Source of the DNA: Giardia intestinalis
Taxonomy: Eukaryota
Reading direction: 5' to 3' (one strand)
DNA: 64,000 nt
Assembly (NCBI GenBank): GCA_000002435.2
Contig: CM018792.1
This document shows, piece after piece, positions 11,329 through 53,217 of the stretch. The position numbers and the translations under genes were made by a program. The notes below the pieces were generated by a model. The model made no database searches. It was not told the origin of the DNA and worked only from the letters and a program-made list of their open reading frames with translations. Position 1 is the first letter of the stretch; each line of letters begins with the position of its first letter.

Positions 11329-11377
11329 TTATTTCAAAAAAGAAGGCACATAGATCTTTAAATCAATTGGTTGCCGA
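11329..11377. promoter_or_regulatory. 49-bp A/T-rich divergent spacer between eIF1A and NAA10 (putative bidirectional promoter)
   Basis: ttatttcaaaaaagaaggcacatagatctttaaatcaattggttgccga. Abuts ATGs on both strands. Confidence 0.4.
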
Positions 11378-14021: not shown

Positions 14022-14083
14022 CTACCTACAGTCTGGGCAGGGTTTTTTAAATCTGTGCTCCAGTAATTTTATTTTGAAGGCGT
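14022..14083. promoter_or_regulatory. 62-bp divergent spacer between the phosphohexomutase and Dus genes (putative bidirectional promoter)
   Basis: ctacctacagtctgggcagggttttttaaatctgtgctccagtaattttattttgaaggcgt. A/T-rich run directly upstream of ATG 14084. Confidence 0.4.
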
Positions 14084-16296: not shown

Positions 16297-16324
16297 AGTA
16301 ATTAATAAACTTTTACTTCTGCCC
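16297..16324. promoter_or_regulatory. 28-bp A/T-rich bidirectional promoter candidate, adjacent to a CCATGG site
   Basis: agtaattaataaacttttacttctgccc lies between minus ATG 16296 and plus ATG 16325. CCATGG at 16323-16328 contains an ATG on both strands. Confidence 0.4.
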
Positions 16325-17416
16325 ATGGCTCTTGATCCCTATGGCGATCGGTGGTACAGGGATTTCACCGTACGAATACTCCCAGTTGAGTGGAAGGTTG
16401 CAAAGCAATCCAAGCAGAAGGGATTCGTAGAGCCTTTGGGTGTCGCGGCCCTGTGCTTTACCGAGGTAGCGACTGGAGAGACATTCAAGCTCTTTGAGTT
16501 TACTCTGGTCAGTTACACCAAGAAAGAGATCAACGTCTCTGGAATATCAGACTCTGGCATTCAGATAACCGTATCCATTTTTGCACGATCCCAGAACTAT
16601 AGCCAGCTGCTGGTTCTCCTAGAATGTCTCCAGTCTCGCGACAGTGATGCTTACTCAGCAGAGAGGATTCCTCCCGCGACGCTAGCCACCGACTCAACCC
16701 CAAGCAAATTCTTGAGCCACTACTTGACTAAAGCTGCTGCCGCTCTCGATACCCGGCCCTCTTGTGGTATTCCTGAGATCGAGCGTGACCGCTTTCTTGC
16801 CGTCATGCGACTCATTATTCGCAGGTGCAGTGCAACCAGCAATAAGCCACCAGATACAGCTATTGAGGCCGACGCAGAAGCCGGGGATGTAATGCTACTG
16901 CCTTCTAGAATAGAAGCCCACAGGAGACTGTTGGTTGAGATGGGAATATGCAACGATCTTTCTAATTCAGAGATGTCCCACATGCAGAAGCTGCAGGTTG
17001 GACTGCCTGATGTGGACCGAGAAGAAATACTGCTAGAGCTTGGAAAGGCGTATAAGCCTGCATATTTGCTCCCGAAAACAACGAAAACCAGTCATAGAGA
17101 CGAGCGCTATACTCAGCAATTAGAAGAAGTTATCAGGAATGCAGAGTCTCTTTGTAATGAGATAGACAACCAAGATAATAGTAACGGGACGGCGTGTGAG
17201 GTAGTGCGTAGCAACGCACGCCCCTGCGGCATGATAAACCTTTCAGATATGAGCGCGGTACACAGCGCTCGAGACCGTGACCACGATCCGGTAGGAGACA
17301 GGGCTGCCCTAGGTAGCAACCATGTGCCAGGTTCTGCAAAATTCATTAGGCGGCCAGTTATATCCACATTCAATGCGACAGTTGAAGAGATACCAGACCT
17401 GACTACTCCTCTTTAA
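16325..17416 (+). CDS. hypothetical protein, about 363 aa
   Basis: ORF in track from 16220. ATG 16325 (MALDPYGDRWYRD...) chosen because it directly follows the A/T-rich element. No domain recognised. 3' end overlaps the next gene by 14 nt. Confidence 0.5.
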   Translation: MALDPYGDRWYRDFTVRILPVEWKVAKQSKQKGFVEPLGVAALCFTEVATGETFKLFEFTLVSYTKKEINVSGISDSGIQITVSIFARSQNYSQLLVLLECLQSRDSDAYSAERIPPATLATDSTPSKFLSHYLTKAAAALDTRPSCGIPEIERDRFLAVMRLIIRRCSATSNKPPDTAIEADAEAGDVMLLPSRIEAHRRLLVEMGICNDLSNSEMSHMQKLQVGLPDVDREEILLELGKAYKPAYLLPKTTKTSHRDERYTQQLEEVIRNAESLCNEIDNQDNSNGTACEVVRSNARPCGMINLSDMSAVHSARDRDHDPVGDRAALGSNHVPGSAKFIRRPVISTFNATVEEIPDLTTPL

Positions 17417-36500: not shown

Positions 36501-39500
36501 ACCCAAAGACTTGTAGTCCAGACCCTCGGAGCAGTTGAAGATGAGACATTGGATGCTTATGGCCTTGGCAAGGTCCTTCGTGGTCTCGGTTTTTCCAGTA
36601 CCAGCAGGTCCTTGTGGCGCACCGCCCTTACGCAACTGTAGAGCAGAGGTCAGAGTAACGTAGCACCGATCTGTCAGAGGTGTGCAAACAAGTCGGCCAG
36701 TGTTTGCCAGGTACTCGTACTGATAGGCAAGAATTGATGTGGTTTGGCGAATGACTATACACATAGTCATGTCCTCGCGCTTCTCCTCCTTCTTTTTTTT
36801 CTTGTTGCTCGGCTGGTCAAAGTCACTGCCCACCAACTCCAGGTAATACTTTAGTTGGCTGAACCACTCAAAGCATTGGTCGTTGTAAACCTTAGCATGG
36901 TAGAGCTCTTCTATTATGTCACGATTATGGACTTCTAGGGTAATGTGGGAACGCACCTTGTTCTGAATAAGGGAGCCCTGGAAGTTGCATGGGTACGGCG
37001 CTGCTTGTGGCACTACAAACTCCGACCGTTGCTTGCGGACGATTTCAGTTAGCTTGCTGAGGAAGATCATAGAGCGTTTGCGGGAGTTTTTAAGGTTACG
37101 CCGAACAGTGTCAAGGCAGTCCTGGAACCCAGGTGTTTGCATGAGTTGTTGCATAAGAAAGGCCTCGTCATCCAATTCTTCCTGAGGCTCCTCTGCTGCT
37201 GTCTCGTCTCCACCATCAAGGCCATCCTCTCCAGGTCTGTCGAAAGTATCTTTTTTATTCCTCAATGTGGGAGCTTCTAGCTTGGTTTTGTCAAGGAACT
37301 TTGCCCCGCTAGAGAGTGCGTGTGCAACGTGCTGCGTCCATCTGATCTGGTTGCTTGCTATAGTAAGTTGACCCGGCCACTTTCCAAGCAATATCTCTAA
37401 CGGCAGCTTTCCGTTGACCATGTCCAAGAGGCAACGCGGCGCCATGTCTTTTAGAGTTGCGCGCATACAATCTTCCACCTGTCCGAGCCAGACTTCAACG
37501 GGAACTCCTGTGCAGATGATATTTCGAAGAAATGGCACCAACTCTCCGCAGTCCCCCCTCATGCCCGAAGCAATAACGACAGTATTTGGCTTAAGCTGGC
37601 TGACGTCGGTGTACTGACTGATATTTGTCCCAGCTTTGTCTGTGACGTCAAGAGACTTCATTGCATCAAAGCACTTGCGTATGTGTGGCTGCACAGCAAG
37701 TGGATTCTTCGACTGAGCCAAAATCTCAAGCAACTCGTCGTTGGAAAGGAAGTAGAACCGTGGGAAGGAAACGCGCTTTCGCTCAAGATAATCCTCCAAC
37801 CTCTTTTGGATCTGATCGAGCGTCTGAGAAATCTCTAGCATTGATTTAATAATCACAGAGGATCGTCGTAGATTAATCTTAGAGCCGATATTTGTTTGCA
37901 GCAGCTCTAGAATATCGAAACAAACGAGGACCCGTTTCTCACGGTGAATGCGTGTCATGGACTTCTTCCAAAGTTCATTGGCCTCGTCGAAAAGCTGGGA
38001 CTCTGCCGGAAGCTGCTTACGGATATCATCAGAGGCGGCAAAAATGGTCTCCAAGTACATCCAGGCACGCTGAGAGTTCAGGATAATCTCGATTCCTTCA
38101 GAGACCTGGGAGAGCACCGCGTCCCACGTGTCCAGCTCCTGCTCAAATGCCCGTGCATACTTGGATCCCTTCATTGTTGATATGGACAAGGAGTGCTCCT
38201 CTAAGTTTGCAAAAAGGTCCTCCAGGCCCTTCAAAATGTAATAGGTGGGTTTGTTTCGTACATCCCCGCCGTACGACTTGCTCTGATACGTTGCAACATT
38301 AAGCTCAAGCATGTGCCACTTCTTGACGATGTCACGCATTCCCTCTTCAATGAAGAGCTCCTGCGTGGCGCCGCTAGATATCGCAGCAATGGATTCAGCG
38401 TGCACCATGAGTCCGGAACTTATGATAAAATGTAGAGTGAAGTGCATCGAGTCCGGATCAATGATGACTTTGTCGTAGGCTTCATTGTTCACGGCAGAGG
38501 AGGAAAGCCCAGCCGATGTTGTGGAAGAATCAAGGTTGACCCCGCTTGAGACAAGGTTAGATAGTTTGGCAATTGGCTCTCCTCCTGAGGCAGGTCCCAG
38601 AATATTGGGAGTGTCTTTCGGGATCAGCAGGTAGATGCCAGTTATTTCTGAGATCTGTGCCCAATGGCGCGGACGCATAGCGGTGTTTTTGAGGTCCTGG
38701 CTAACAGCGGGAACAGGTCGGTACTCCTCAAGCTGCAGAGCAAGAGTCTTCGAAACAGGAAATGCTTTTGTATCGTTGGGAAGCTTTCTTACCGAGATTT
38801 GGTTTTTCTTAATTTCAGCATCGAGCTGCTCGTGATCAATGTGGCGCATCTGAGTTCGCTTCACGCTGCTGTAGTAATTGTTCCAAGCGGAAGCAATAGA
38901 CCATATGCTCTTGAGCTGCTTGATCATTCCTTGTATTATGCTCAGCTCTTTTACGTCCTTGAATTCAGCTTGGAAAATCCTCAACCCATGCTCAACCTGT
39001 TCTTTCAGCTGGAGCAAGTCGTCATACTTGTTCTCAAAGCGATGAAGTATCCGCTCCGCCTGCTGTATGTCCTCGGCCGTCAGAGCAACACCCTCGATTG
39101 CCTTGGTTACAACATTGGGAGAATATGGTCCTTCGCTCTGGACTAACGTCTTCAGATCCATACACGCTTGGGTGAGATTGGCCTGGTCTCTCGTAACCTG
39201 GTCTCTGAATTTGGTTCGTTCCACAGCCACCTTCAATTGCGCAGAGTCGATGGCGCCCTTCGCCTTTGTAATAAGATCTGTAAGACCGTTTAAGATAACA
39301 AGCTTATCTGCAGACACGTTCGCTTCTAAGGTCATAAGCAGTTGGAACTTCTGCCCTATAGGTTGGCAGCGCTCATTAATGCTGCCAATAAGTACCTTTG
39401 CACTGTCTAGGTTTGTAATCTGACGCTGGAGGTCATCCAGGTCGCGAGACTCTTTGTCCAAGAGCAGGATCATCTCGTTAAGATCGTTAGTGACCAATTT

Positions 39501-42500
39501 GAGCTCGGAAAACGCCTTCTCTTGGAGAACGTCAATAAGATAACTCTGGAAGTCGGCGCTCTTGCGCGCAAGTTCTGTCTTGAGATTGGTACAGTCAAGC
39601 TGGATGACAGACAAGTGTATGTGTGACTCCTCTTGCTGCAGGTCAGCTTCTAAGCGCTGGAAGCTTTTGAGCGTATCTTCATAGACAGACAGAGGCTGCG
39701 ATAAGAGGTTATGGCGTATTTCGTACCCTCGCATATCCTCCAGCCAAAGCTCGGAATAGCGAGCAAAGTTCCCGGCGTAGGTTGTCGCTTGCTTGCAAAC
39801 CGCATCTAAGCTATAGCGTATCCAGGCTATGGCATGCCCCAGTGCATTGGTGTTGATTCCCTTGGCCTGCTGGTCTGTAGCCTCATCGGGACAGCTGCTG
39901 GGCGAATAGACTGTGACGGTATTAGCTGGCTGATCCAAAATGTTAATTGCAAATCTAAAGAGATCTAGATACGGAATTCGAACCTTGTATTCTGGCATCT
40001 TCAGAGACGCCCATTCATCTATGTCCGCACGCAGCACGGCTATCTCAGCAGGAGATGTTTGCAGGCCCTCTCTCTCCCGCTGATCTATCTTCTCCTGAAA
40101 GATACGTTCTGCCTCTGCAATCCGCATTTCCCGCAAACGGCGCTCCTTCGCTGAAAGGGATATGTGGAAGCGTTCTATACGTTCAACGATACCCAGAATG
40201 GCGGATCTCAGGACAGTGACAACAGCGCCATTCAGCTCGTCAACAGATGGGCTAATAATGGGATGCTTAGTGAGAACCAAGAAGAGTTTAAAGATCGGGA
40301 TGGCCTCTGGCTTATAGGCAGACATGTCTAACGGCCTGGAACGACGTCCAGTCATGATGAAGGCCAGCTCCTCAAAGCTCTGGACAAAAAGAGCGAGCAG
40401 CGACACCTCAATCCGGGATTCTATTTGAGAAACAAACTGGATCCACTCTGCTTGTACTGAAGGGCCATCTTTCCGGAAGATATTATAGCAGCTTACAAGA
40501 GAATCTTCCGCTAGGTTAAGGGTCTCAAAGAATTGGCGTGTGGCTGAATCCAAAGTAACACGTTGGTTAGACACAAATTCAGAAAGCTGAAGTGGCCCAC
40601 TAGTGGACGATCTCTCACCAAGTTGGGCGTCGTCGTCATCTGCAAGGCTTTGCTCCATCGATTGGGCATGGCTCAAGGAACTGGATGACGATGTATCCGC
40701 GCAAAGCTTGCAATTGATGAGAGAAATGGAGCTTAGAGACCTGATGCAGTCCTCGATAGTCTTCCGTTTGTTGTGGAATAGGCACGTCAGTGCAAACGCT
40801 TCAATAGCCAGCTTTCGCGCCTTCATAATGAACTGGAGAAGACCACGGGTATTCCAGCCTATTTTTGTCCACGCATCCGAGAGATAGTTAGACAGCTCGG
40901 AGAGGCGCGAGCGGAACAAAAGGATCTCATCAGGCGCTAGGTTATCCACAACACGATTGACCTCAGAGACACAGAGAGATACAAGCTCCTTTTTCTGATG
41001 GAGCGCAGTTCGGCGCGAGTACAGTTGCTTGGCGTTTTCAGGGATGTCGTATCCTAACTTGCTCCAGTACATGACTTCCTGCAAGCAGTTCTTGATAGAG
41101 ACAGGGTACTGAAGGCTAACCCGATTCAGAAGAAGGATTGTGTTCGTCGTCTCCTCGTGGGGCTCGTCCTTTGCTTGGGGTGCTTTCTTAGCTTTGTCAC
41201 TTGATGTCCCCATGTCCAGGGCGTTAAGTGCCGAGTCGACGTTTAGTTTTTCCTTAAGAGCATCTGGAATGGGCGTGAGAGCCATGATCGGCTTCTCTAG
41301 CTCTGCCTCGAAATTGTACGACTTGATGCTCGAAACCCATTCGCGGAAGTTTCTGTCTATGTAGCTTTCAAAAAGAGCTTTAGTTTTGGCGTAAATCTCA
41401 ATGGCCTCGCGTTCGTCGCGGGAGTAGTTGACTAATAGTTCGACTGCCTGCCTGCTATCATTGGTTCCAACACCAGATGCCGCGGCTGCAGCATTCCTCC
41501 GCTCCCTGTTTAGGAGTTCTGAGGCAACTTGGCGAGCACCTGGGGAAAGCCATATGACAAGGGCATCCCAGTCACGCTCCAAAGCGCTGAGTAACCGTTT
41601 AATATTCACCGAATTCATAGCGATGCGCGGCTGGAATGAAGCAAATGTCAACACCGTAGAGTGTGCCACCGTCGTCGCCATACTGGCCGAGGCCTGGTCA
41701 ACGTCCAGTTTGCGCTCGGGTTGAGCATGCTCGTCTGTGCCACTGAGTGCCACCTTTGCTGATGCCTTTGCAGTTCCAGAATTAGCTCCACTGACAGCCT
41801 TCGTCGACCTGGCTTTTGTCCCCAGTGGGGCTTTTGCAGCTGCCAGCTTGGTAGTCCTTTTAGTGTCCCTAGCCTCTGACGGTTTGCTTTCAACATTGGT
41901 AGTGTTAGACGCTGTCCTTAAAAGCTCAAACTGGCTTTTTATCTGTCCTGCCTTCTCAATGAAAAGGCGCACAGTATCGAGAGTTTTCTTTTCCACAGAG
42001 CGTCTGAACGCTGGGCGACTAGATAAATGGCTAAACGCCTCAAGGATAGCGCAGGTTTCAACAACGGAGTGGCTAGATTGGGAAAAGTTTGTTGAGATAA
42101 TGTTCTCAGTGAAGATAGTGAGCGCCTTGATCCCCTGACGGTAGGCTGCGACAGACTCGTGCCACGAGTTTGATCGCACGTCAAAGTGATTGTATGGAAC
42201 ACGAGAAAGAAGGGCGAGATGGCGTAAGAATGTGCGCTGAATCTCCCTAAAGGACCGCCGGATCATTTGGCCTAAACTTCCTCCAAATTTAGGAAGAAGA
42301 TACTCAGCAGAGTTAATGTCTGCAAGTGATGCCGTGTTAAGGTTATCGTAAGGTGGCTTTCCAATCTGAGAGAGGAGACTCATGTCGACTGTCAATCCAT
42401 TAGGAAGCTCTATTGTTTCTGTTTTAGGTGTGGCAGAGAACGTGTTCTCCTTAATATGTTGCTTCCCATTTTGCTCTGCACCCGCATTGGAATTAGTGTG

Positions 42501-44246
42501 GCGCTGTAAGAATCCATCCTTCGAGGCAATTAACGTGTCTGCACGAGAAAACTGGAGCCTATCCTGACATATTTCGCACAGGTCAATGCATCTCTGGCCA
42601 AACGCCTCTGCAGAGGAGACCACTGAAGAATCGAAGGACCACTCCATGAACGGCTGGTCAGGTCTTTGTTTCCGCAGAAGCAGGCAATAGACCGTTTTGT
42701 GATACTGTGGAGGAATATGGTTAAGTGCAGCAGGGTTATCGTAGCTATCCTCTGTCCCTTCGCCTTCTTCAGTTCTCTCATCGGGCTCGGGAACTGGCTC
42801 CGGCTCAGGAGGAGGCAGCGCGCCCATCTGTGCCTCTGCCTCAATGGCTGCCTTTTTGGCCGTTTCTATTTCTGTAACAAGGTCCTCGTGCTCCTTTGTA
42901 TTGTCACACGCCTGCTTATATAGCAATATCCACGAATTGATGATTGCATTGCATCCAATAAGATCGTGAATAGACCGGAGACTGTCCCCGACAAAGATAT
43001 CATACAGGCTAACCATGGATACCAGGCTATTAACCACAAGCGACGAGACACGCCGCAACAGCCCAGACAAGTTAGCCACGTTAGAATAGTATGCTGACTG
43101 GGCACTTATTAGCTTTATTTGGCAGAGAAGATCCGGAAGAACTGATGCGATATCGTTTAGATCTTTTGTGGTCATCAGGGATCTACAGGCGCCCTCAATA
43201 GTCCCCAAAAACTTTAGGTTTGACATGCTTTCATTTGTGCGCTCCTTGATAACTGCAGCAAGCTCGTCGAAGGTGTCAGCGTACTGTGAGTGTGCCAGCT
43301 TCAAGGTCTCAATTACATTACACAGCGCCCTTGAGCGTAGCTGGTCCAGAACCGCTGTGAGGTCTGCAGCCCTAGTCTTCCAGTAACACAGCTCGTCCAG
43401 AGGGTCCTGCAAGCGAGGAAACGGGTGATACTTCGTTGCACAGGCATTGAGCCCTCGTGCTGCCTTTTTGCTAAACTGAGTGATGGGCCGAGATGCATCA
43501 TCAGTCTTTGGAGCCGTCCCTGGCGTTATTGCTTGTTGAGCAGTCATTGAGGTCCGTGCCATGGAGTGCACACCCGAAAGCAGCTCTTTGATTTGGCGTG
43601 TCCAATGGACAACGAGAGATTCTAACCGAGGTATGAGCTCTTTGTTGCGCGAGCCCTCTACTGGGTCTAGATCCTCAAAGCTAGGGATATACAGAACGGT
43701 TCTCCCCTTTGCAAGATAAGTCGTCTCAGTCAAGCTGGCCATATACCGCTCAATTTGGCTTAGAAAGTCGTCTCTAACACTAGATGGCCAAGTGTTGAAG
43801 GAACGAATCCAGGGAGAGTAAACAGAATTCATGGCATTCAGTAAGGACTCTGTGACGCAAGGAGACACCGTCCCCATCTGAATGTGATTTCTCCAGTCGG
43901 TGAAGTCGGCCGGCATTGTTTCAAGTCGGACGAAGTAGTAGATACTGAAGGCTAGCGTCGGCTGAGAAGTGTCCGACTTTGCCGCTGAAAAGTCTGTTGT
44001 ATTGGATAGAGAGTGAACAACCTCGAGTTTGTGTAGTTTCTCATTGAACCATAAAAAGAGTGAGCAGTGAGCGGAGTCTGTCGGATTGGTAAACTCTAAA
44101 AACAGCTCGTGGTATGGATCCATGTCCGTGAGCTCGATCCTATAGCCCCCGGAGGCACGCATGATATCGAGAATGAAATACAAGAACTCCTGGTCGACCG
44201 GCACCAAGTTTGTGCCCTCGACGCCACCACTCATGACCGAGTCCAT
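27513..44246 (-). CDS. dynein heavy chain, 5577 aa, single uninterrupted ORF
   Basis: AAA1 P-loop GPAGTGKTETTKDLAKA with CFDEFNR. AAA2 GNSGSGKTT. AAA3 GVSGTGKTS. AAA4 LLIGSGGSGRSSMTRLAAH. Long coiled-coil stalk region. Conserved C-terminal domain. N-terminal tail of about 2500 aa. Lys-rich insertions (NKKKKKEEK; KKEKEKKAKK...KKKKK). Confidence 0.95.
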   Translation of the reverse strand: MDSVMSGGVEGTNLVPVDQEFLYFILDIMRASGGYRIELTDMDPYHELFLEFTNPTDSAHCSLFLWFNEKLHKLEVVHSLSNTTDFSAAKSDTSQPTLAFSIYYFVRLETMPADFTDWRNHIQMGTVSPCVTESLLNAMNSVYSPWIRSFNTWPSSVRDDFLSQIERYMASLTETTYLAKGRTVLYIPSFEDLDPVEGSRNKELIPRLESLVVHWTRQIKELLSGVHSMARTSMTAQQAITPGTAPKTDDASRPITQFSKKAARGLNACATKYHPFPRLQDPLDELCYWKTRAADLTAVLDQLRSRALCNVIETLKLAHSQYADTFDELAAVIKERTNESMSNLKFLGTIEGACRSLMTTKDLNDIASVLPDLLCQIKLISAQSAYYSNVANLSGLLRRVSSLVVNSLVSMVSLYDIFVGDSLRSIHDLIGCNAIINSWILLYKQACDNTKEHEDLVTEIETAKKAAIEAEAQMGALPPPEPEPVPEPDERTEEGEGTEDSYDNPAALNHIPPQYHKTVYCLLLRKQRPDQPFMEWSFDSSVVSSAEAFGQRCIDLCEICQDRLQFSRADTLIASKDGFLQRHTNSNAGAEQNGKQHIKENTFSATPKTETIELPNGLTVDMSLLSQIGKPPYDNLNTASLADINSAEYLLPKFGGSLGQMIRRSFREIQRTFLRHLALLSRVPYNHFDVRSNSWHESVAAYRQGIKALTIFTENIISTNFSQSSHSVVETCAILEAFSHLSSRPAFRRSVEKKTLDTVRLFIEKAGQIKSQFELLRTASNTTNVESKPSEARDTKRTTKLAAAKAPLGTKARSTKAVSGANSGTAKASAKVALSGTDEHAQPERKLDVDQASASMATTVAHSTVLTFASFQPRIAMNSVNIKRLLSALERDWDALVIWLSPGARQVASELLNRERRNAAAAASGVGTNDSRQAVELLVNYSRDEREAIEIYAKTKALFESYIDRNFREWVSSIKSYNFEAELEKPIMALTPIPDALKEKLNVDSALNALDMGTSSDKAKKAPQAKDEPHEETTNTILLLNRVSLQYPVSIKNCLQEVMYWSKLGYDIPENAKQLYSRRTALHQKKELVSLCVSEVNRVVDNLAPDEILLFRSRLSELSNYLSDAWTKIGWNTRGLLQFIMKARKLAIEAFALTCLFHNKRKTIEDCIRSLSSISLINCKLCADTSSSSSLSHAQSMEQSLADDDDAQLGERSSTSGPLQLSEFVSNQRVTLDSATRQFFETLNLAEDSLVSCYNIFRKDGPSVQAEWIQFVSQIESRIEVSLLALFVQSFEELAFIMTGRRSRPLDMSAYKPEAIPIFKLFLVLTKHPIISPSVDELNGAVVTVLRSAILGIVERIERFHISLSAKERRLREMRIAEAERIFQEKIDQREREGLQTSPAEIAVLRADIDEWASLKMPEYKVRIPYLDLFRFAINILDQPANTVTVYSPSSCPDEATDQQAKGINTNALGHAIAWIRYSLDAVCKQATTYAGNFARYSELWLEDMRGYEIRHNLLSQPLSVYEDTLKSFQRLEADLQQEESHIHLSVIQLDCTNLKTELARKSADFQSYLIDVLQEKAFSELKLVTNDLNEMILLLDKESRDLDDLQRQITNLDSAKVLIGSINERCQPIGQKFQLLMTLEANVSADKLVILNGLTDLITKAKGAIDSAQLKVAVERTKFRDQVTRDQANLTQACMDLKTLVQSEGPYSPNVVTKAIEGVALTAEDIQQAERILHRFENKYDDLLQLKEQVEHGLRIFQAEFKDVKELSIIQGMIKQLKSIWSIASAWNNYYSSVKRTQMRHIDHEQLDAEIKKNQISVRKLPNDTKAFPVSKTLALQLEEYRPVPAVSQDLKNTAMRPRHWAQISEITGIYLLIPKDTPNILGPASGGEPIAKLSNLVSSGVNLDSSTTSAGLSSSAVNNEAYDKVIIDPDSMHFTLHFIISSGLMVHAESIAAISSGATQELFIEEGMRDIVKKWHMLELNVATYQSKSYGGDVRNKPTYYILKGLEDLFANLEEHSLSISTMKGSKYARAFEQELDTWDAVLSQVSEGIEIILNSQRAWMYLETIFAASDDIRKQLPAESQLFDEANELWKKSMTRIHREKRVLVCFDILELLQTNIGSKINLRRSSVIIKSMLEISQTLDQIQKRLEDYLERKRVSFPRFYFLSNDELLEILAQSKNPLAVQPHIRKCFDAMKSLDVTDKAGTNISQYTDVSQLKPNTVVIASGMRGDCGELVPFLRNIICTGVPVEVWLGQVEDCMRATLKDMAPRCLLDMVNGKLPLEILLGKWPGQLTIASNQIRWTQHVAHALSSGAKFLDKTKLEAPTLRNKKDTFDRPGEDGLDGGDETAAEEPQEELDDEAFLMQQLMQTPGFQDCLDTVRRNLKNSRKRSMIFLSKLTEIVRKQRSEFVVPQAAPYPCNFQGSLIQNKVRSHITLEVHNRDIIEELYHAKVYNDQCFEWFSQLKYYLELVGSDFDQPSNKKKKKEEKREDMTMCIVIRQTTSILAYQYEYLANTGRLVCTPLTDRCYVTLTSALQLRKGGAPQGPAGTGKTETTKDLAKAISIQCLIFNCSEGLDYKSLGRMFSGLCQTGAWSCFDEFNRLYVDVLSVVAQQVGTILAAISKNASRFVFEGREISLKRTCGVFITMNPGYAGRSELPDNLKALFRPISMCVPQMQLICEIMILSEGFATAKSLGMKAKTLFELSNLQLSKQGHYDFGLRAMKAVLLTAGMLKRSHPEYPEDMIMMRSLKYSTEPKLVRQDTLLFTGLISDLFPGVELQDVSYGLVEAGVDIEMAVRNIHINTKQRDKIFQFLETQESRHGVMVIGNSGSGKTTCYEVLAAARARAKKAYTEYLEATQPKGAVQAKAFLKNPYCIMIKHVVDSQEIPFKAVSPYLYLLQKLYKDETGTSKHIQETVYLAKCIHYMKDVYKYDSNTGAYAFTPARDQKDTTVGDVLVEPVYDEKVRTPYDDAYDVVIDYINPKALNINQLYGAFDMATQEWVDGVVSNCIRSSSALGNDPNNKTYYTTLFDGPVDTLWIESLNSVLDDSKILTLVNGERISFPKAVNFLFEANDLSQASPATVSRAGMIYCDLSDIEWRWLYRHGIDKFYRSRTRNELVRERYGTFQFNLERAIAKVKENEGDSSNYKELIKHDVPAETNQLIIDTLEGYGMKLFNKVFDAKEQGILTQSIDYSVYSMMRTFFNMFEALAQPHNGVWIDIFDNDGMVQRVVEMYIVFSLVWAFGGSLDSDGRQHFDLIIREVEGALPVADTVWDYKVDHGRRSWVHWNEVLPRGWRPNPAIPLYSTLVPTVDTLRTEYVVKTAILHAAIESIEIRNYHTVGPANSYTTSYGVMLYGVSGTGKTSIFKNIIIPALEQGLITNSAYEYYSTLQVACDGATNLEKMFVGGNIGKYNIVSLGLSAQTSPQRLQAVLESRLQPRSTTSMGPVGGKRLLAFFDDYNLPQRDAFGSQPPLEFMRQVMDRGTMYRQKKDKYYLSSILDVDIVPAMAVPGGGRNPICARNLSLFSIFGIDSPSENVLKGIFHTLLNAHFALGFDEQIRQMVDTLVTSGIEIYAQVSSSLLPTPLKPHYVFNLRDLSKFFLSLMKADPQQQTTQDSIVRLWTHECLRVYHDRLVETDRPWFFDLLSSKLGNHFNTTLSRVFYEKQPPLFVDFLETKWISTIPNNQDPDTEVGVFQEITSKKMLKTFMEEKLREYNNSGAASMNLVLFNDAIDHCCRIARILSSPSGHALLIGSGGSGRSSMTRLAAHLQRQTVFSIDLAKNYGVAQFREDMKKLFLMAGVDNQAVCFLLSDQQIADEAFLEDVNSILSSGEIPGLFTQDEMSQIRDALSPVCKQYGMSETMENCYQMLLQRSKVNLHIVLAFSPSGEVFRRRLRMFPSLVGSCTLDLFGDWPTSALEEVALYFLSDFKELDEFENMQRVLEIDENGNIVEEKAQPPATTARGGSSQNSSRDESDTTDPTRMSLRRKLAKAFVTAHDVSHKTALEMELASKRKVHVTPAGYLSLVRLYRDILLQQRHKITNDINKLKGGINKLMETRETVEEMRKELETTKVVVLESQENCENLLANIAVQQREIDEKQRLIQIDSEKLMKEKEVLMGQMKEAQKDLDEATPALEAAQKALESLDSKDIYEIRSFTQPPELVKLVLAGVMTLLNRDTDYKSAKIVMGEGQFLEKLINYDVNNIPETMLKKVKRYYMDKNYTVDAIGRVSVAGKSLCLWVRAVYEYACVYKVVKPKQDALEDAKNKLAEKERALQAAQDELARIAAAVEKLKSEHASAVAERDRLRRLAEELALKLNRAEKLISGLGGEKERWTKKIQTLTYNLSSLPGDCLTAAAFISYAGGLTGRFRSYVLTEWVNAVNVWMIPCTDPEKYSVSEFLAGQALIYQWSLLGLPKDNFSAENGILITTSNRTPLIIDPQRQATRWIKRLFFEAPEYSKTDVGNVQQSEESEGGTLKLEVGTQQSKKPPKQSSNPDENLKIINAKDADAVKQIEMCIQYGTPVLLEDVGEQIDPSLDVIIRKDIIKKQGRRFIKIRDKEVEWNDNFRIFVSTRLPNPLYTPEVFAKACIINFTIIKEGLTDQLLGAVVSKERPDLEESKNKIVLNTANMRVKLQFLEDEILRLLATSSGSLLDDEELIATLENSKVTSAEITKQLETSAITEKKIDMARRAYQPVSERASLLYFVLEDLGSVDPMYQFSLEAYMKLFINSINNSQKHEDVSARIRLLNDYHTYAVYKYCCRGLFTRHKILLSLHMCVKILESYGRINMSEYAFLLKGGQVFDKSQQPPNPDPTWISGAMWDSLCILDKMPAFSNLLPSIEQRLKDWYTNYYVHDTPEKAPLVGEWDTQLNELQKMLVLRCFRPDRLINAIYTFVANSIGAQYTNPPPFDLGLALTDSSPQIPLLFILSQGADPTSQLLAFAKSCGRADKLDQISLGQGQQEVAVKAVQRSMKEGRWVLLANVHLTPSFFSVLEQLVEDIPHSAPHKDFRLWISSDPTNVFPISVLQTSIKITTEAPSGVRANLQQLYTYIDKPILERLQVRDSYHVPQEEQENMFSMTPDEKDDAYRKLLFGISFYHTLLVERRKFGSLGYNIQYQFTQSDYETAVEVLSMYLQLYDTIPWNALKYLVASIIYGGRVIDDLDRRVLNVYIDHVFCQTAIKRDGYLLAPPLSEYVIPQRGSLQEYRDYITTLPQVDLPAVFGQHSNSEVASRKVESLTLVETLLTIQSIDGSSSGEVDDKKKEKEKKAKKVADDGDGDEDGTKKKKKESTGLSARDERMIKLAQDIIHSLPAPITNLPPPITDINDQTAPLKAVLLQESERHMRLRNIISDDLTTLQRGIRGLTMMSAYLDEVLNDLQVGKVPASWGIIYKSTKSLAPWSRDFIKRVEQLQKWANVGSLKSYWLGGLSLPTAFLTALQQQASRRMNIAIDQLEWGFQVTRYLDPLRDIDDRSVPAFGDGFYAHDFYLEGANWDLDVGYLKEPRLMDLYLTLPIIRFKPQEAKKKTAKFQQVFYECPCYYYPVRTGSREQPSFVINIWLHSGYDKPAKWVKRGTAILLNLGD

Positions 44247-46032: not shown

Positions 46033-48603
46033 ATGTTTCCAGGGGCGCTCAGTTCTTTGTCGGTAGACTTCGAAACTGCAGAAACAGAATTCGAGACCAA
46101 ACTGGAGCAATTTGTGATGGGACTCAATAGAGATACAGCGGACCTTCAGCAAGCATCATTCCTTGTAAGGGCGTCAGGCTACGAACATAAGTTGCCAGTG
46201 GTGTTTTCGCGAAAAGTATATGCACTAGCATTACAATTGAAAGAGAAGAATCTTGGCAACGCTAGGGAAATTATTCTCCAGTTTCTCAAGAATGTGGTTA
46301 TCTCCTCCACTTATATTCCGCGCCTGGAGCATGCTGCGCTTGGTTACCTGGAAAGGTGCATCAGCTCCTTCGGAATTTATGTTTACTCCGCTAAAGAAGC
46401 TATCGTGCAGCTACTCGTCGATGTGCTTTTGGGTGTCTATAATCTACCAGGAAAGGCTCCACACGACTTACTGATTCATAAGATACCCCACAAAGTAGCA
46501 TGGGGAATCGTCGGGGCTATCTCCATGGTGTCATTCGAGACCGACGATGACATGTCTGCACTTGCCACCGGCATCCGATTGTCGCTGCAGGCGTACAAGA
46601 AGGATACCCCACTGACTAAGACCCGGCTCAACCAGCTGGTTATGTTATTCCGCGTTTCACTTGAGGTTGAGAACTTGTTTAAAATACAATCTTCTCTCTA
46701 TTGTTCTCCCACGATATTTTCACAGGTGTATGGAGATATTTTCTTTTCTGCTCAGAAGGACCCACTGGTACGCTTGGTGCAGGATGACGTCACAGCAATC
46801 CAGGGATACGTAGAGCTCTTAGTGATTCCATCTACCAACATCGCCCATCTTGTGCATCTGTGTCGCGAGATCTCTTTGGCCTCAGTATCTGATGAGGACC
46901 TTCCTAGCCTAGTGCGTGATCGAGACACTAACCAGGAGCTGGGATGCACAACGATTGCTACTCTATGCGCATTTTACAAGCAGGTCATTTTCTCCGGGCA
47001 TCAGGTGGGCAAGGAGATTCTAGAAAACATCCGGATTGCTGCCAATAAGCAGCTAGCAAAGGGCCCTCTGTACGAGTTTCTTTCTCCGGTGGCTGACATT
47101 CGTTCCATCTTGCCTTTTCTCTTCTTGAATCATCCACCTACCTTTTTGATTGACATGATAGAACTTTCGCTTTCGTTGACATATAGGAATATACTACGTG
47201 TTCTACGTGACCCACTGTCTGACCAAAACGAAGTTGATGACGCAGAAACTTCTGCAGGACAGCTGATCGGTTTTCTAGTGCAGGCAATCATTCAGCTTGG
47301 AGGATCCTTTGTTATCGAGTGTGCTGAAGCCAAGCAGTTGGCAGAACGTTGTCTCGAGAGGGTAGGCAGGGTTCTAGCTATTATCTTTGATCAGTGGCAG
47401 AGACACAAGGAGTCTGAGGCCCCAGTGAAGACGCACGCGTTGCAAACACTGCACAGACAGGCAGATATGATTGCTTTTATGTTAGGAACTGAGATTGATC
47501 TCTTGGAAGCCCTAAAGCTTCTCTGCAAGGGCAATATGTTGGCGACTGATAAGCTTCTGCAGTGTATTCAAGAGCTGAGGCTTTGCTATCGAGCCATGAT
47601 AGATGACAACAGCACAAGTGATACACCTCTTTCCCTTGTCTGTCCATACGTAACACTGGTTAGACATAGGAGTGAGTCGAGTACGGGGGCTTTCCCCATG
47701 ATCCGCTACGAGCTGCTCACATCAAATGTAATGCTCTGCATCAGCACACTCTATACCGCACGCCTGGAGGAAGTTTTCAGAGGAAGAAACATACTTATCG
47801 ATACAGGCTCCAGGGTGATATTCGAGTACGCTCTGAACTCCTTCAGCGTCAACATCAGCACATATACCATTGTGATGCTTCTTCTCCTGTTCCTTCAGTC
47901 GGCTGACTTTGCGCCTCCCTTGCGGTTTAACAAGTTCGTGAGCAAGTTCTTTACATCATTTGCCATGGAAAGTACCCTTAGCTCGCGCGTACTTATTACC
48001 AGATTGATTTTGGGATTGGTATTTGATGTGCCGTTTATTTGCTTAAGCAAGACCGGCCATTCTGTCTCAGCTAAGCAAGTGGACTACACAGACGGCTTCA
48101 TCACCTCCTTCACAGACATATCTGGGATCTTGAATTGTAGCACAATATCAGAGATTGGTATAAGAGGAGATTCTATCGATCGTTTAGCAACCCTATTCGT
48201 TTATGCCAATCCTTACGTTACAGATGTGCTTACGGTTCTTATTGAGCAAGGCTTTGATCTCTATGACCCTGAGAGGCACCTGATCAATATGCATTTCCCT
48301 GAATATATCTTTCAGTCTGACCCTCGCTCACCGCCAGGCGTCCCGTCACAGTGCAACAGTGATTCCTTTGCTGATGTCCACACTCCTCAAAGTCGAAAGT
48401 ACATCGCTCAACACCATCTTTCTCTAAAGGCGGCAATAGCTCAATGTGTCAAAAGATCCAAGAGTTCACTTTTAAAAATACACAGCGAAATAAGTAGGAA
48501 GTGGTCAATAGAATTGGATACTCTAAAGATTATTCTTGGGGAGCTAGTGGACACTGGGGTCCTTGAGATTGATGAGCAAGGTTTGTATACATTTGAGATA
48601 TAA
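46033..48603 (+). CDS. hypothetical protein, 856 aa
   Basis: Track ORF starts at GTG 45988. First ATG at 46033. Long helical protein. No domain recognised. Confidence 0.5.
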   Translation: MFPGALSSLSVDFETAETEFETKLEQFVMGLNRDTADLQQASFLVRASGYEHKLPVVFSRKVYALALQLKEKNLGNAREIILQFLKNVVISSTYIPRLEHAALGYLERCISSFGIYVYSAKEAIVQLLVDVLLGVYNLPGKAPHDLLIHKIPHKVAWGIVGAISMVSFETDDDMSALATGIRLSLQAYKKDTPLTKTRLNQLVMLFRVSLEVENLFKIQSSLYCSPTIFSQVYGDIFFSAQKDPLVRLVQDDVTAIQGYVELLVIPSTNIAHLVHLCREISLASVSDEDLPSLVRDRDTNQELGCTTIATLCAFYKQVIFSGHQVGKEILENIRIAANKQLAKGPLYEFLSPVADIRSILPFLFLNHPPTFLIDMIELSLSLTYRNILRVLRDPLSDQNEVDDAETSAGQLIGFLVQAIIQLGGSFVIECAEAKQLAERCLERVGRVLAIIFDQWQRHKESEAPVKTHALQTLHRQADMIAFMLGTEIDLLEALKLLCKGNMLATDKLLQCIQELRLCYRAMIDDNSTSDTPLSLVCPYVTLVRHRSESSTGAFPMIRYELLTSNVMLCISTLYTARLEEVFRGRNILIDTGSRVIFEYALNSFSVNISTYTIVMLLLLFLQSADFAPPLRFNKFVSKFFTSFAMESTLSSRVLITRLILGLVFDVPFICLSKTGHSVSAKQVDYTDGFITSFTDISGILNCSTISEIGIRGDSIDRLATLFVYANPYVTDVLTVLIEQGFDLYDPERHLINMHFPEYIFQSDPRSPPGVPSQCNSDSFADVHTPQSRKYIAQHHLSLKAAIAQCVKRSKSSLLKIHSEISRKWSIELDTLKIILGELVDTGVLEIDEQGLYTFEI

Positions 48604-48701: not shown

Positions 48702-49349
48702 TCATAGAACAGCACATAGTCTGCAGTTTGTCTTCTTGGCTTCTTTGAGAAACATTTTGGACGCTGCAGACAGGTCATCGGACTTCTTCATGACCTCATC
48801 AAGACTCCTCCCACGCTCAACAATCTTCTCTAGATTTGCATACGCCATGTCTCGCACTTCATCGATATCTTTGGCCAGCTTAGAAAGCTGATCGTTCTCT
48901 TCTGGCCTCTGAGCTCTCTTTAAAAGAGGAACTAAGTCTACAAGACCACCATCCTCTTTTGGCCCTACAGCATCTTTGGAGACATTGAGCTTGTTGGGCG
49001 GTAAATTCATCGCTAGAGAAAGCATCTCCTTAAGGTAATGGTTTGCGAAGCGGATGGCATACGAAGTATTGGCTACTAGGATTGCAGTTGTACCGCTTGA
49101 ATTCTTAAGTCCATAGACGCAGTACGCAAAGTCATTGTTTGCTGACGCCTTTATCATGTTCCCAGGCTGCAGAGCAAGGGCGACGGACCGAGCTGAGAAA
49201 CGCATGATCTCTTTGGCAGATCCCCGGGTCACCAAAGAGAGAGACGAGACGTCGTGTGCGGCTGCAACTATGGCAACGGTTTTCTCCTCCCCATTGACAG
49301 GAGGCAGGTCCTGGATCAGGGCCACGTACATGACCGGAGAAGAGGTCAT
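48702..49349 (-). CDS. YKT6: Ykt6-like longin R-SNARE (no TM, C-terminal CaaX-like CAVL)
   Basis: Longin domain VMYVALIQD...KTVAIVAAAHDVSSLSLVTRGSAKEIMRFSAR matches Ykt6 (lyalsilyk..kvvllkaayDVSSFSFFqRssvqEFMtFtsq). R-SNARE motif DEVRDMAYANLEKIVERGRSLDEVMKKSDDLSAASKMFLKEAKK. Ends NCRLCAVL. Start set at second ATG 49349. Track start 49367 would overlap the Rpt4 ATG. Confidence 0.7.
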   Translation of the reverse strand: MTSSPVMYVALIQDLPPVNGEEKTVAIVAAAHDVSSLSLVTRGSAKEIMRFSARSVALALQPGNMIKASANNDFAYCVYGLKNSSGTTAILVANTSYAIRFANHYLKEMLSLAMNLPPNKLNVSKDAVGPKEDGGLVDLVPLLKRAQRPEENDQLSKLAKDIDEVRDMAYANLEKIVERGRSLDEVMKKSDDLSAASKMFLKEAKKTNCRLCAVL

Positions 49350-49357
49350 TTTTAAAA
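49350..49357. promoter_or_regulatory. 8-bp palindromic spacer TTTTAAAA between the divergent Ykt6 and Rpt4 start codons (minimal bidirectional initiator candidate)
   Basis: ggtCAT TTTTAAAA ATGccc. Minus ATG at 49347-49349. Plus ATG at 49358-49360. Confidence 0.35.
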
Positions 49358-50563
49358 ATGCCCCCATCGCAAGCGAAGCTGCAGGAGTATCGTAACGTTG
49401 TGAGGGAGCACAACAAAATAGACGCCGACCTGAAGGCTATACGGGCCAAGGAAAAGGAGATAACGCAGACCCTTGAGGACAGCAACGAGCTGCTGTTGAG
49501 TCTGCATGCATACGGTGAACAGCTGGCCACTGTCATCCAGGTTATCGACGCAGATAACATCTTAATTAGGCTCCTCTCTGGGCCCCGCTATTTGGTCAAC
49601 AGGCGGTCTGGAATTAATCCTCGCTACATTAAGTCAGGGACCCGTGTCTCTGTGTCTCTCTCAACCTACTCCATAATGCACATCCTCCCACCTCAGATGG
49701 ACGAGTCTATCTATTCCATGTCGGACGCAGGGACAACCGGTGTGTCACCAGAGGATGCAGTTACCTATGCTGACATCGGCGGTTTACACGATGAAATTAA
49801 ACTGATTAAGGAGAGCATAGAGCTGCCACTCCGCAACCCAGACATCTTTAAACGCGTAGGCATTAAGCCCCCCAAGTCCATTCTCCTCTATGGAGCCCCG
49901 GGAACTGGCAAAAGCCTTATCTGTAAGTGCCTAGCCAACTCCTTGGGAATTTCTTACATCAAGTGTGTCGGCTCACAGCTTATTAGAAAGTACATCGGAG
50001 AGTCTGCGAGATTGGTGAGAGACCTTTTTGCATATGCCAAACTCAAGAAACCATGCCTTCTAATGATTGACGAAGTTGACGCCATTGCGACCAAGCGCTC
50101 AGATGACGGAACTCATAACGACCGTGAGGTCGACCGCGCACTCCTCCAGCTCCTGACTGAGATAGATGGGTTCACGGGCCTAGATGAGAGCATAAAAATA
50201 GTCTTTTGCACTAACAGGCCAGAGGCTCTCGACCCCGCGCTAATGCGCCCTGGAAGATGCGACGTGAAAATAGAAATAAGACTTCCAGATCCCACAGGCC
50301 GATACGAAATACTCAAGATCCACAGCAAGGGGCTTTCTCTTGGGGAGGACGTGGACTTCGCTGGGATCGTAAAGTCGACGGATGGGTTTAACGGTGCAGA
50401 TCTGCGAAATGTGATAACAGAGGCAGGGCTCGGTGCTCTCAGGGCAGAGCGGGGCGAGATACATCAAGAGGATCTGCTTGCAGCTGTGGCAGTCATACGC
50501 AGTAATAAGTCTATAGAATCCGAGACACATTCTTACACCCTGAAGGGTCACAATAGTAAATAA
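49358..50563 (+). CDS. RPT4: 26S proteasome regulatory subunit ATPase Rpt4 (PSMC6/S10b-like)
   Basis: N-terminal coiled coil. [76 protein letters not shown] and [17 protein letters not shown] align closely with Rpt4 ([83 protein letters not shown]). Confidence 0.9.
   Translation: [401 protein letters not shown]
50555..50561 (+). promoter_or_regulatory. AGTAAAT polyadenylation motif overlapping the Rpt4 stop codon (AGTAAATAA)
   Basis: caatAGTAAATAAcgcc. The motif's last T is the first base of the stop codon TAA (50561-50563). Confidence 0.45.
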
Positions 50564-50586: not shown

Positions 50587-53217
50587 TTAGGCGAGGTCAG
50601 CGATTATTCCATTCAGTTCAGAGATGCACAGTTTGGCGTTTGCTAGGACTTGTAGCCCCGTTGCATATTGAGAAAGAAAGGCTTCTATCACTGATCTACA
50701 TGCTGCCAGCTCGCTTGCACTTGCTATTACTTTAATGGAATCCAACAGGGGATAGCCCCTACCCTCTTTAAAAGGTGTGTAGGGCCGAATGAGCACACGG
50801 CACGCAAAGATGATTCCATGCAAACTATTGAGAGTTATGGATCGCACAGACTCCAGTTCAGTGAAGAGGCATGACAGGGCGCTGGATCCCGTGCCGAAAA
50901 TGGGCGATGTGGCCCGTGCAGCTGAAACACGAAGGTGAATATTTGGAGAAGAAAGACATGTAATGACTGTGGATAGTACGTGTGGGTGAGAGGATCGCAA
51001 AAAGGAGGCCGTTGTGTGTGAAGGAGCACAGCTAGCAAGAATTTGAAGAAGGGCGAAGAGCCCAGGATCTGACCTCACTATGTATGTACTGCTACGGAAT
51101 ACTCTGCTAAGAAAGAGATCCTCGATGTGGTACCGCTTCTGGTGTTTCGATGTTTGCCTGGCAACCCTCGTTGCGAGTCCCATCAGTGCAGAGAATGCCG
51201 CGCATCTAAATAAGTAGTGCTTAGATCCATATCTTTCTAACAGCACAATTACTTCCCCTGCTATTCTAGAGAAAATTCTGAACTCAAATGGCGTAGTGGC
51301 CTCCAACAACAATACGTGGAGAACAAGCATGGAGTGAAGCCCAGACCGAAGATCTGATTCATGTCCTAATAGCCTGAGAGTGGCCAGGTTCCGCAAGAGA
51401 GCGTTGAGAATACTACCTACCGATTTGTTCAAATACAGATACCAATCTTCCTGGAGCAAGTTGGGTCCTTGTCCACGAAGCGCACGTTGTCTATGTCCCT
51501 TATCCTCTCTGGTAGCTACAGGGTCATTCGGTGATTTGGAGGCAAAGCTGTTGTCGACGCTATCTGGAGCAAGGGTGCTCTGCGCAAGAAACTCGTAAGC
51601 TATTATATCGTTGGAGGCATACTTTTGCTGAAGTTGTGAGACAATACCGTTAACATAGCTCAAAATAAGTGATGGTAGAGAGCCTCCGCCGCGGGAAATA
51701 GGTACCTGTTGGCTTCCTATCAAGCTGAGAAGAGTTCTGTTGATAGCGGTTAGAACAATACGAGATGATTCCGCTTCTTGGTGGTTGCATGGGTGTCTAG
51801 CCAAATGTGCAATTAGGCTTTGAAATGATGTCCTGCACGAACCGATAACTTCTTTGTGGAATATTGGTGCAAGGGTACATACCATTGTGGTGATGTCTTT
51901 AGTGAGCATGTGTGTCTTAACTAGGCTCAACGATTGACTGCTTATCAGCTGAGAGGTACTCCAAAAGAGCTCAGCAGAGGAGATGACAAAGGACCAGGAT
52001 GCAATGTGGTAGATGTCTCGGCTGGAAATAAATCCATGCTCACTGAAAACTCCAGCACACAGATCGCTATATAAGTTGGTAGTTGTATCCTCTGGCTCGC
52101 TGACGTGTATCTTGCCCGATGACAAATCAACGTGTTCCTCTGTATTCACGTATCTAAAGATGTGTGGATTGTCTGTCATTCCGCGGATGGCCATCTGAAC
52201 ATAATATGTAAATCTGGAAGATAGTTGGCGACAGTCTCGTAGATATTTCTGAATGAAGCACGGAATGCTAGGCTTGGTGTGCGGCACATCAGCATGAGGA
52301 GAGGTTAGGCTCGAAAGTTCCTTCATGTAAAATAGCATGCTGAGAACCATGACTTCTATCAGCAGCATGCAGTCAGTGAGGCACCTTATTGTTTCTTTGT
52401 TAACGAGCTCAGCGGGGCCTCGTGAAAGAGACTGAAGAAAGTTATCCAAACTGGTCGAGTCCAGGACAGACGTTAGAGAATAAAAGACTGATGCTCCTAA
52501 TGGGAGCTCCTCCGCTACCGCCAGTACAAGAAATAGTGTACTGGCAAAGGATTTGATTGAGCTTTGAGAAGAGGGGAGCAGCTCAACATATTGTGATGTA
52601 AGCTTTGCTTGGACTTCGTGAAGCACTGAATTATCGCGCTGGCTTGTGGAGAACGAGATGCGGATAAAGTCAAACAGCACGGGCAATAGTGCCACATGCG
52701 CTGAGGCTTTAGAGAGAATCGTCAACTCTAGCATAAGATCAAGAGAGGAAATGGGCAAGGAAACGCCTGCGTGCTTAATGTTCTCCACGACTGCGTGTAA
52801 TACCTTGAGCCCAAAGACAGGAAGAGTCTTAGAACTAAAGTCGTATCTATGAATAATCTCTGTCACTGTCCGTTCAAAGAGGGTCACAAGGGTGGCTTGA
52901 AGCAGCTGTTTCTCCATGCCAATCTTGAAAATCAGGCTACCCAATTTGCTTTCATCTTCAGAGGATAGTGTTGAGACAGTCTGCTTTAGATGAAGCGATC
53001 GAAGCTTATTGTGAAGCGTGGCGATTCTATACGCTACTAACTTGGTCCCTAAGGAGGCAATAAGCTGTGCTTCAGCTTGTTGGCCACGGGGGCAAGAAAC
53101 CAGCGTACTAAGAAGGATGAGCTTATCTGCAACTTCAGGGGTGTACTCTCTGTTACAATATTTACATGAGCCTATTGCAGCAGGGCTTAAGCCCCACAGC
53201 ACATCCCGGTTCAGCAT
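50587..53217 (-). CDS. hypothetical protein, 876 aa, HEAT/ARM-like helical
   Basis: Long ORF with ATG at 53217. No catalytic motif recognised. Confidence 0.5.
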   Translation of the reverse strand: MLNRDVLWGLSPAAIGSCKYCNREYTPEVADKLILLSTLVSCPRGQQAEAQLIASLGTKLVAYRIATLHNKLRSLHLKQTVSTLSSEDESKLGSLIFKIGMEKQLLQATLVTLFERTVTEIIHRYDFSSKTLPVFGLKVLHAVVENIKHAGVSLPISSLDLMLELTILSKASAHVALLPVLFDFIRISFSTSQRDNSVLHEVQAKLTSQYVELLPSSQSSIKSFASTLFLVLAVAEELPLGASVFYSLTSVLDSTSLDNFLQSLSRGPAELVNKETIRCLTDCMLLIEVMVLSMLFYMKELSSLTSPHADVPHTKPSIPCFIQKYLRDCRQLSSRFTYYVQMAIRGMTDNPHIFRYVNTEEHVDLSSGKIHVSEPEDTTTNLYSDLCAGVFSEHGFISSRDIYHIASWSFVISSAELFWSTSQLISSQSLSLVKTHMLTKDITTMVCTLAPIFHKEVIGSCRTSFQSLIAHLARHPCNHQEAESSRIVLTAINRTLLSLIGSQQVPISRGGGSLPSLILSYVNGIVSQLQQKYASNDIIAYEFLAQSTLAPDSVDNSFASKSPNDPVATREDKGHRQRALRGQGPNLLQEDWYLYLNKSVGSILNALLRNLATLRLLGHESDLRSGLHSMLVLHVLLLEATTPFEFRIFSRIAGEVIVLLERYGSKHYLFRCAAFSALMGLATRVARQTSKHQKRYHIEDLFLSRVFRSSTYIVRSDPGLFALLQILASCAPSHTTASFLRSSHPHVLSTVITCLSSPNIHLRVSAARATSPIFGTGSSALSCLFTELESVRSITLNSLHGIIFACRVLIRPYTPFKEGRGYPLLDSIKVIASASELAACRSVIEAFLSQYATGLQVLANAKLCISELNGIIADLA

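Follow-up and report, generated by a model that had tools for sequence, protein, structure and literature searches.

Results

Within a 64,000-nucleotide stretch of Giardia intestinalis DNA (contig CM018792.1 of GenBank assembly GCA_000002435.2; hereafter the window, with a G+C content of about 49%), two divergent genes, coding for the SNARE protein Ykt6 and the proteasomal ATPase Rpt4, are separated by 8 bp. Read directly, positions 49347-49360 consist of CAT (49347-49349), TTTTAAAA (49350-49357) and ATG (49358-49360), the octamer being the complete non-coding spacer and the sole gap between a minus-strand and a plus-strand start codon. The whole 14-mer is a perfect palindrome, and it contains a pure A/T palindrome of 12 nt, ATTTTTAAAAAT (49348-49359), which resembles an initiator and reads the same on both strands. 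The source of the DNA is Giardia duodenalis assemblage A, and the 1,850 bp around the spacer show 0 mismatches to WB-like contigs. The original prediction, made from the letters of this stretch, had described the CAT-8-bp-ATG arrangement and its palindrome, which our direct read confirms, and had named the two flanking genes, whose identities are borne out by the matches given here.

The minus-strand coding sequence (48702-49349, 215 amino acids) encodes a Ykt6-type prenylated R-SNARE. The best solved-structure match of the minus-strand open reading frame (ORF) is YKT6 (1.9e-17, residues 19-214), a Synaptobrevin domain occupies residues 157-218 of the 221-residue ORF, and the C-terminal sequence is CRLCAVL, a CAVL box that comes without a hydrophobic tail or anchor. 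The protein combines the features of Ykt6, namely a longin domain, an R-SNARE motif, a C-terminal cysteine lipidation motif and no transmembrane anchor. RefSeq names the gene "R-SNARE 2".

The start codons were examined by comparison with orthologous loci from assemblage A (L011-L013), assemblage E strain P15 (L010), a lineage 89% identical (L001), assemblage B (L002 and L009), G. muris (L004), a G. muris-like lineage (L003) and a distant relative (L005). The head-to-head pair of Ykt6 and Rpt4 is kept in every lineage compared, L005 included, and the two genes with their single intergenic region are syntenic in 6 of the 6 Giardia lineages sampled as well as in L005, as expected of two real divergent genes. 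The methionine encoded at 49349 is the only one common to the Ykt6 proteins of all seven lineages (six Giardia and L005); the L005 protein begins with MAEAFPVLSAALL and has no other methionine nearby. Starting from it, the N-terminus of the 215-residue model reads (M)TSSPVMYVALIQ... and (M)TSSPVMYVALIQDLPPVNGEEK. Among the four duodenalis lineages, changes in codons 2-6 fall on the first, second and third codon positions in the ratio 1/0/5, in line with the 30/16/145 of the gene body (P=0.018), and these codons carry no indels, while the adjoining spacer ranges from 8 to 17 bp. On the sequences compared, the 215-residue model is the only one consistent across lineages. This comparison of N-termini upholds the proposal that Ykt6 starts at the ATG of 49349-49347, and RefSeq has cut XP_001708353 from 221 to 215 amino acids (XP_001708353.2).

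The older, 221-residue model started at an upstream in-frame ATG (49365-49367, minus strand), from which, as the original prediction had pointed out, the two coding regions would overlap by 10 nt. That ATG exists and the arithmetic of the overlap is right, but the lineage comparison dismisses it as a start. It is the reverse complement of the CAT in Rpt4 codons 3-4 (CCA TCG), it is missing in assemblage B (CCT TCA), and in G. muris a different spacer length breaks its register. We reject a Ykt6 start at 49367 and regard this ATG as a spurious by-product of Rpt4 codons 3-4; the 221-residue model is the one that RefSeq dropped. The Ykt6 records of strains DH (ESU38699.1) and P15 (EFO63724.1) are still 221 amino acids long, and their first six codons, an extension that spans 49350-49367 of the window and 1501-1518 of L010, overlap the spacer and Rpt4. 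Both models should be shortened to 215 amino acids, a correction of start-codon annotation that follows from the comparison.

A start further inside the gene has also been used, as some gene callers begin Ykt6 at an internal methionine, residue 7 of the 215-residue protein (49329-49331, minus strand). The spacer would then measure 26 bp, the Ykt6 leader would be about 22 nt long from the same initiator, and CAT-TTTTAAAA-ATG would not be a start-to-start arrangement. Residue 12 of rat YKT6 aligns to residue 19 of the 215-residue model, which makes the animal methionine fall near 49331, and metagenome gene callers took this methionine for assemblage B, where the model chosen has 209 amino acids. 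Nevertheless, we consider this start very unlikely. The residue is not conserved, being leucine in G. muris, in the muris-like L003 and in L005, and L005 would have no alternative methionine until far downstream. The five codons upstream of 49331 vary at the third position without indels and, if transcription begins in the spacer, the first AUG is that of 49349.

The plus-strand coding sequence (49358-50563, 401 amino acids) encodes the proteasome AAA-ATPase Rpt4/PSMC6, with Pfam AAA, AAA_lid_3 and proteasomal OB domains and matches in the PDB. Its best full-length PDB match is PSMC6/RPT4 (7.7e-107), with residues 3-389 aligned to 4-383, and in the chain alignment Rpt4 residue 3 pairs with residue 4 of human PSMC6. 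The top proteasomal chains are PSMC6/RPT4, which distinguishes the protein from the other Rpt paralogues, and its named database matches are Rpt4/10B/T4. RefSeq and GenBank call the product of 49358-50563 '26S protease regulatory subunit 7', a Rpt1/PSMC2 name; the full-length matches point to Rpt4/PSMC6/10B, and this product name is probably wrong. A downstream ATG as the real Rpt4 start would have undone the arrangement, and this was checked: the orthologues in all six sequenced Giardia lineages compared are 401 amino acids long and begin with MPPS, and the next methionine lies more than 100 residues further in, so that the start of Rpt4 is at 49358. Since both start codons are thus settled by comparison, the true start-to-start distance between Ykt6 and Rpt4 is 8 bp and the alternative of a 10-nt overlap is dropped. 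The current reference annotation already implies this arrangement. The two genes carry the identifiers KAE8303539 and KAE8303540.

The spacer differs among lineages both in sequence and in length: it is TTTTAAAA in assemblage A and TTTAAAAA in assemblage E and L001 (8 bp in each), TTTAAGAAAAAA in assemblage B (12 bp), TCCTCTCTTTTAAAA in G. muris (15 bp) and CACCCTCTTTTAAGAAA in the muris-like L003 (17 bp). A TTTTAA core is invariant from assemblages A, E and B to G. muris, if the T of CAT is counted where needed, and its distance from the Rpt4 ATG is 2-7 nt throughout. The four duodenalis lineages differ in 1 of 8 aligned spacer columns, an approximate figure given that assemblage B carries an insertion, against 74% of synonymous sites (P about 5e-4), which is indirect evidence that the spacer is under purifying selection. 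The distant L005 (run SRR31929897), whose Rpt4 is 57% identical, has a GC-rich spacer of 185 bp (L005 2816-3000) and a separate A-rich leader at each gene of the pair. The presence of the pair in L005 with so long a spacer means that the pairing of the genes is older than the compaction of the spacer, and the L005 layout suggests that two initiators were fused during genome compaction.

The comparison also bears on the symmetry of the element, on which the original prediction had placed weight. The 14-nt palindrome is perfect in assemblage A, as it might be if it were bound by a dimeric regulator that recognises symmetric DNA, or folded into a cruciform or hairpin, with both genes co-regulated as a result. 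However, perfect symmetry is found in assemblage A only and is broken in every other Giardia lineage, and a junction of a T-run with an A-run is the generic form of Giardia initiators (PMC3792122). A hairpin or cruciform was rejected on its predicted energy of -2.9 kcal/mol, which is no better than that of shuffled sequence (z = -0.64), and we regard a selected symmetric site as extremely unlikely.

Sequencing of transcription start sites (TSS-seq) in strain WB has defined an A/T-rich initiator consensus that extends from -5 to +5 around the dominant start, the central A being the transcription start site (TSS). Its most frequent variants are ATTTTAAAATG, ATTTTAAAAAT, AATTTAAAATG, CTTTTAAAAAT and TTTTTAAAATG, with AATTTAAAAAT also among the frequent ones (Table 3 of that work), and the consensus is somewhat symmetrical; transcription in both directions from one nucleotide that lies between neighbouring genes is also reported (PMC3792122). 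The 11-mer TTTTTAAAAAT occurs here on both strands, at 49349-49359 on the plus strand and 49358-49348 on the minus strand, and differs from ATTTTAAAAAT, CTTTTAAAAAT and AATTTAAAAAT at position 1 only. On both strands it has the T-run, the following A-run and the central A of the consensus, and it adjoins both start codons, well within the 0-20 nt upstream of a start codon where initiators are placed. The link to the minimal A/T-rich bidirectional initiators of Giardia that had been drawn from this DNA is borne out by this match.

By the published rule, the major Rpt4 start would be the first A after the T-run at 49354 (plus strand) and the major Ykt6 start its mirror position at 49353 (minus strand), each with a predicted leader AAAA. 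The 4 nt predicted on each side agree with the 0-5 nt leaders foreseen in the original prediction, which is overturned on a further point: it held that neither gene could avoid initiating in or across the first codons of the other, and both predicted starts fit within the 8-bp spacer. As the first A after the T-run lies in the spacer on each strand, the transcripts need not overlap or enter the codons of the other gene. Leaders of this size have precedents in Giardia, where promoters are inherently bidirectional and the mapped 5' untranslated regions (UTRs) include some of about 3 nt (PMC1885649), and where 1-nt leaders are translated (cited in PMC3792122). Per-gene tables of TSSs or 5' UTRs were sought; the supplements of Tolba 2013 hold primers and summary statistics, Franzen 2013 and Bilodeau 2022 treat 3' ends in their main texts, and none of these sources yielded transcript evidence for this locus. 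The TSS-seq reads are deposited in DDBJ as DRA001089 (PMC3792122).

The DNA upstream of each start site is, unavoidably, the coding sequence of the other gene, and no second A/T-rich, TATA-like patch was found within about 60 nt on either side of the spacer. Synonymous sites vary in 6 of 6, 9 of 10 and 12 of 16 cases in the first 10, 20 and 30 codons of Ykt6 (0.72 in the rest of the gene) and in 6 of 8, 11 of 15 and 17 of 24 cases in those of Rpt4 (0.74 in the rest). No extra synonymous constraint was seen in the first 30 codons of either gene in this low-power comparison of four lineages, within whose limited power the A/T junction is the sole conserved element that does not encode protein.

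These data are relevant to another possible arrangement, in which transcription of one gene, or of both, begins at a different and weaker A/T patch within the neighbouring coding sequence, for example ACAAAATAGA near 49411-49420 for Ykt6. Leaders would then be tens of nucleotides long, the divergent transcripts would overlap head to head, and the spacer would be a mere A-rich context for translation. Giardia is known for promiscuous initiation from loose A/T patches, with long 5' UTRs in a minority of genes (PMC1885649, PMC3792122); 38.8% of the transcription regions found by TSS-seq lie more than 100 nt upstream of the ATG (PMC3792122), and the 10-nt window at 49414 is 70% A/T. On the other hand, no pure A/T run other than the spacer is present, no other element is conserved beyond what coding requires, and the candidate upstream positions show no synonymous-site constraint. 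A Ykt6 transcript that began beyond 49367 would meet the upstream AUG first, which is in frame in assemblages A and E; assemblage B lacks it and the upstream AUGs of G. muris are different ones, so that the products would be inconsistent across lineages. Short leaders are moreover reported to be the norm in Giardia and to be needed for efficient translation (PMC1885649). Overlapping transcripts therefore seem to us unlikely, and initiation within the spacer is preferred.

The octamer is not enriched in the window: the 64 kb hold 2 copies of TTTTAAAA where 0.92 are expected, a count attained in 27 of 100 shuffles. Since this enrichment is not significant, the case has to be made from position and conservation. 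Of the 15 occurrences of TTTAAA, 5 are non-coding, though non-coding DNA makes up 7.8% of the window (P=0.004), and none of these 5 is more than 25 nt away from a predicted start codon. Of the 47 pure A/T runs in the window that measure 9 nt or more, 12 precede a start codon by 0-45 nt (P about 6e-10). The second copy of TTTTAAAA, at 48470-48477, lies in the coding sequence of the plus-strand gene 46033-48603 (...SLLKIH...). Used as a control, it is not conserved in the orthologues of assemblage E, assemblage B or L001; it is probably a chance copy, and it could be a cryptic start for sterile transcripts.

With credible start calls, 8 bp is the shortest spacer among the 11 divergent pairs of the window, followed by one of 49 bp. 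The divergent spacers at 11329-11377 (49 bp) and 14022-14083 (62 bp) each hold two separate A/T-rich elements, one near each start codon; this two-initiator layout is the usual one, and the single shared element at 49350 contrasts with it. Genome-wide figures for head-to-head spacing in Giardia were not found in the literature searched, which gives only median intergenic sizes.

Discussion

Our results point to a single A/T-rich initiator common to two divergent housekeeping genes, formed by TTTTAAAA plus the neighbouring T (of CAT) and A (of ATG), which gives T5A5, and we think this explanation is probably correct. It builds on four results: both start codons are fixed, the A/T core is conserved, the sequence fits the published consensus, and flanking synonymous sites show no extra constraint; where transcription starts, and that one element would serve both directions, we infer from the consensus. 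RNA polymerase II would begin on each strand at the first A after the T-run, at 49354 for Rpt4 and 49353 for Ykt6, so that both starts would lie within the spacer on adjacent base pairs and the two mRNAs would not overlap or would barely do so. The leaders would be about 4 nt each (range about 1-5), and mRNAs of this kind are known to be translated by Giardia ribosomes. The region upstream of each start, which belongs to the neighbour's coding sequence, appears to contain no sequence-specific promoter element. The palindrome would then be the geometric outcome of two A-rich leaders pushed together by compaction, and not a selected symmetric site.

Several points weigh against this explanation. 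The positions 49354 and 49353 are extrapolated from a genome-wide consensus, and some symmetrical consensus sites fire in one direction only (PMC3792122), which means that bidirectional use is not guaranteed by symmetry. Giardia TATA-binding protein shows no preferential binding to A/T-rich initiators in vitro (PMC12209930). Low power limits the synonymous-site test, which covers four lineages and 10-24 informative codons and is compatible with a short or purely compositional element in the coding sequence of the neighbour. Finally, the rank of the spacing comes from 11 divergent pairs in a 64-kb window.

A stronger proposal can be made, namely that the TTTTAA junction (8-12 bp) is the only sequence-specific cis element needed for both genes. 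In that case it would be a naturally occurring minimal promoter for RNA polymerase II in both directions, the neighbouring coding sequences being free of any upstream element too. We offer this tentatively, as it seems to us somewhat less likely than not. If the junction alone is sufficient, few of the complete promoters known for eukaryotic protein-coding genes would be as small, and it could serve as a test case for the positioning of the Giardia pre-initiation complex.

The closest known system is the Giardia initiator described by TSS-seq (Tolba et al. 2013, PMC3792122, and the GDH and alpha2-tubulin promoter studies cited there), which has the same T-run followed by an A-run adjoining the ATG, the same symmetry and the same distance of 0-5 nt from the start. 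The element between Ykt6 and Rpt4 is a near-exact match to frequent variants of it, and that work reports bidirectional firing from one nucleotide between adjacent genes. Here, however, a single copy fills the whole gap and leaves no space for any other non-coding element, and the start sites are predicted. The ran/phd pair, with a bidirectional intergenic region of 153 bp (Teodorovic et al. 2007, PMC1885649), likewise uses one short region with A/T-rich start sites. In contrast to the locus studied here, with its one element, the promoters of that study carry a pair of A/T-rich elements, spaced by about 30 bp, which exchange TATA-like and initiator roles between the two directions.

As regards gene packing, which is extreme in G. 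muris, very short or negative intergenic distances are normal in the genus, with an A-rich initiator ahead of most start codons (Xu et al. 2020, PMC7641422). For intergenic distance, the median of G. intestinalis is 81 bp and that of G. muris 37 bp, and overlaps affect 9.5% of G. muris genes (PMC7641422). At this locus the spacer of G. duodenalis (8-12 bp) is tighter than that of G. muris (15 bp), the reverse of the genome-wide trend. The locus lies at the compact extreme of a genome known for compaction; it is an extreme but expected member of an already published class, involves no new mechanism and leaves the current picture of Giardia transcription unchanged. The earlier reading of the element as a minimal bidirectional initiator, rich in A/T and giving leaders only a few nucleotides long, is right in kind.

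The value of the locus is that of a natural experiment, in which 8 bp are all the non-coding DNA at the head of two conserved, presumably essential genes, and relatives provide natural spacer variants that are asymmetric or longer by 4, 7 or 9 bp. It is well suited to ask whether an initiator alone is sufficient, whether transcription can start in both directions from adjacent base pairs, and what is the shortest leader that is accepted.

The Giardia poly(A) signal AGURAA is found at 50555-50563, within the last two Rpt4 codons, AGT AAA, and the TAA stop. A convergent minus-strand neighbour (50587-53217) has its stop codon only 23 bp from the end of Rpt4, and the 3' ends of the two genes probably overlap. 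Elsewhere in the window, longest-ORF models overlap at 9334-9469 (136 nt) and at 16220-16326 (107 nt); these are probably cases of start codons called too far upstream and not real overlaps. An uninterrupted minus-strand ORF at 27513-44246 extends over 5,577 codons (16.7 kb), a quarter of the window.

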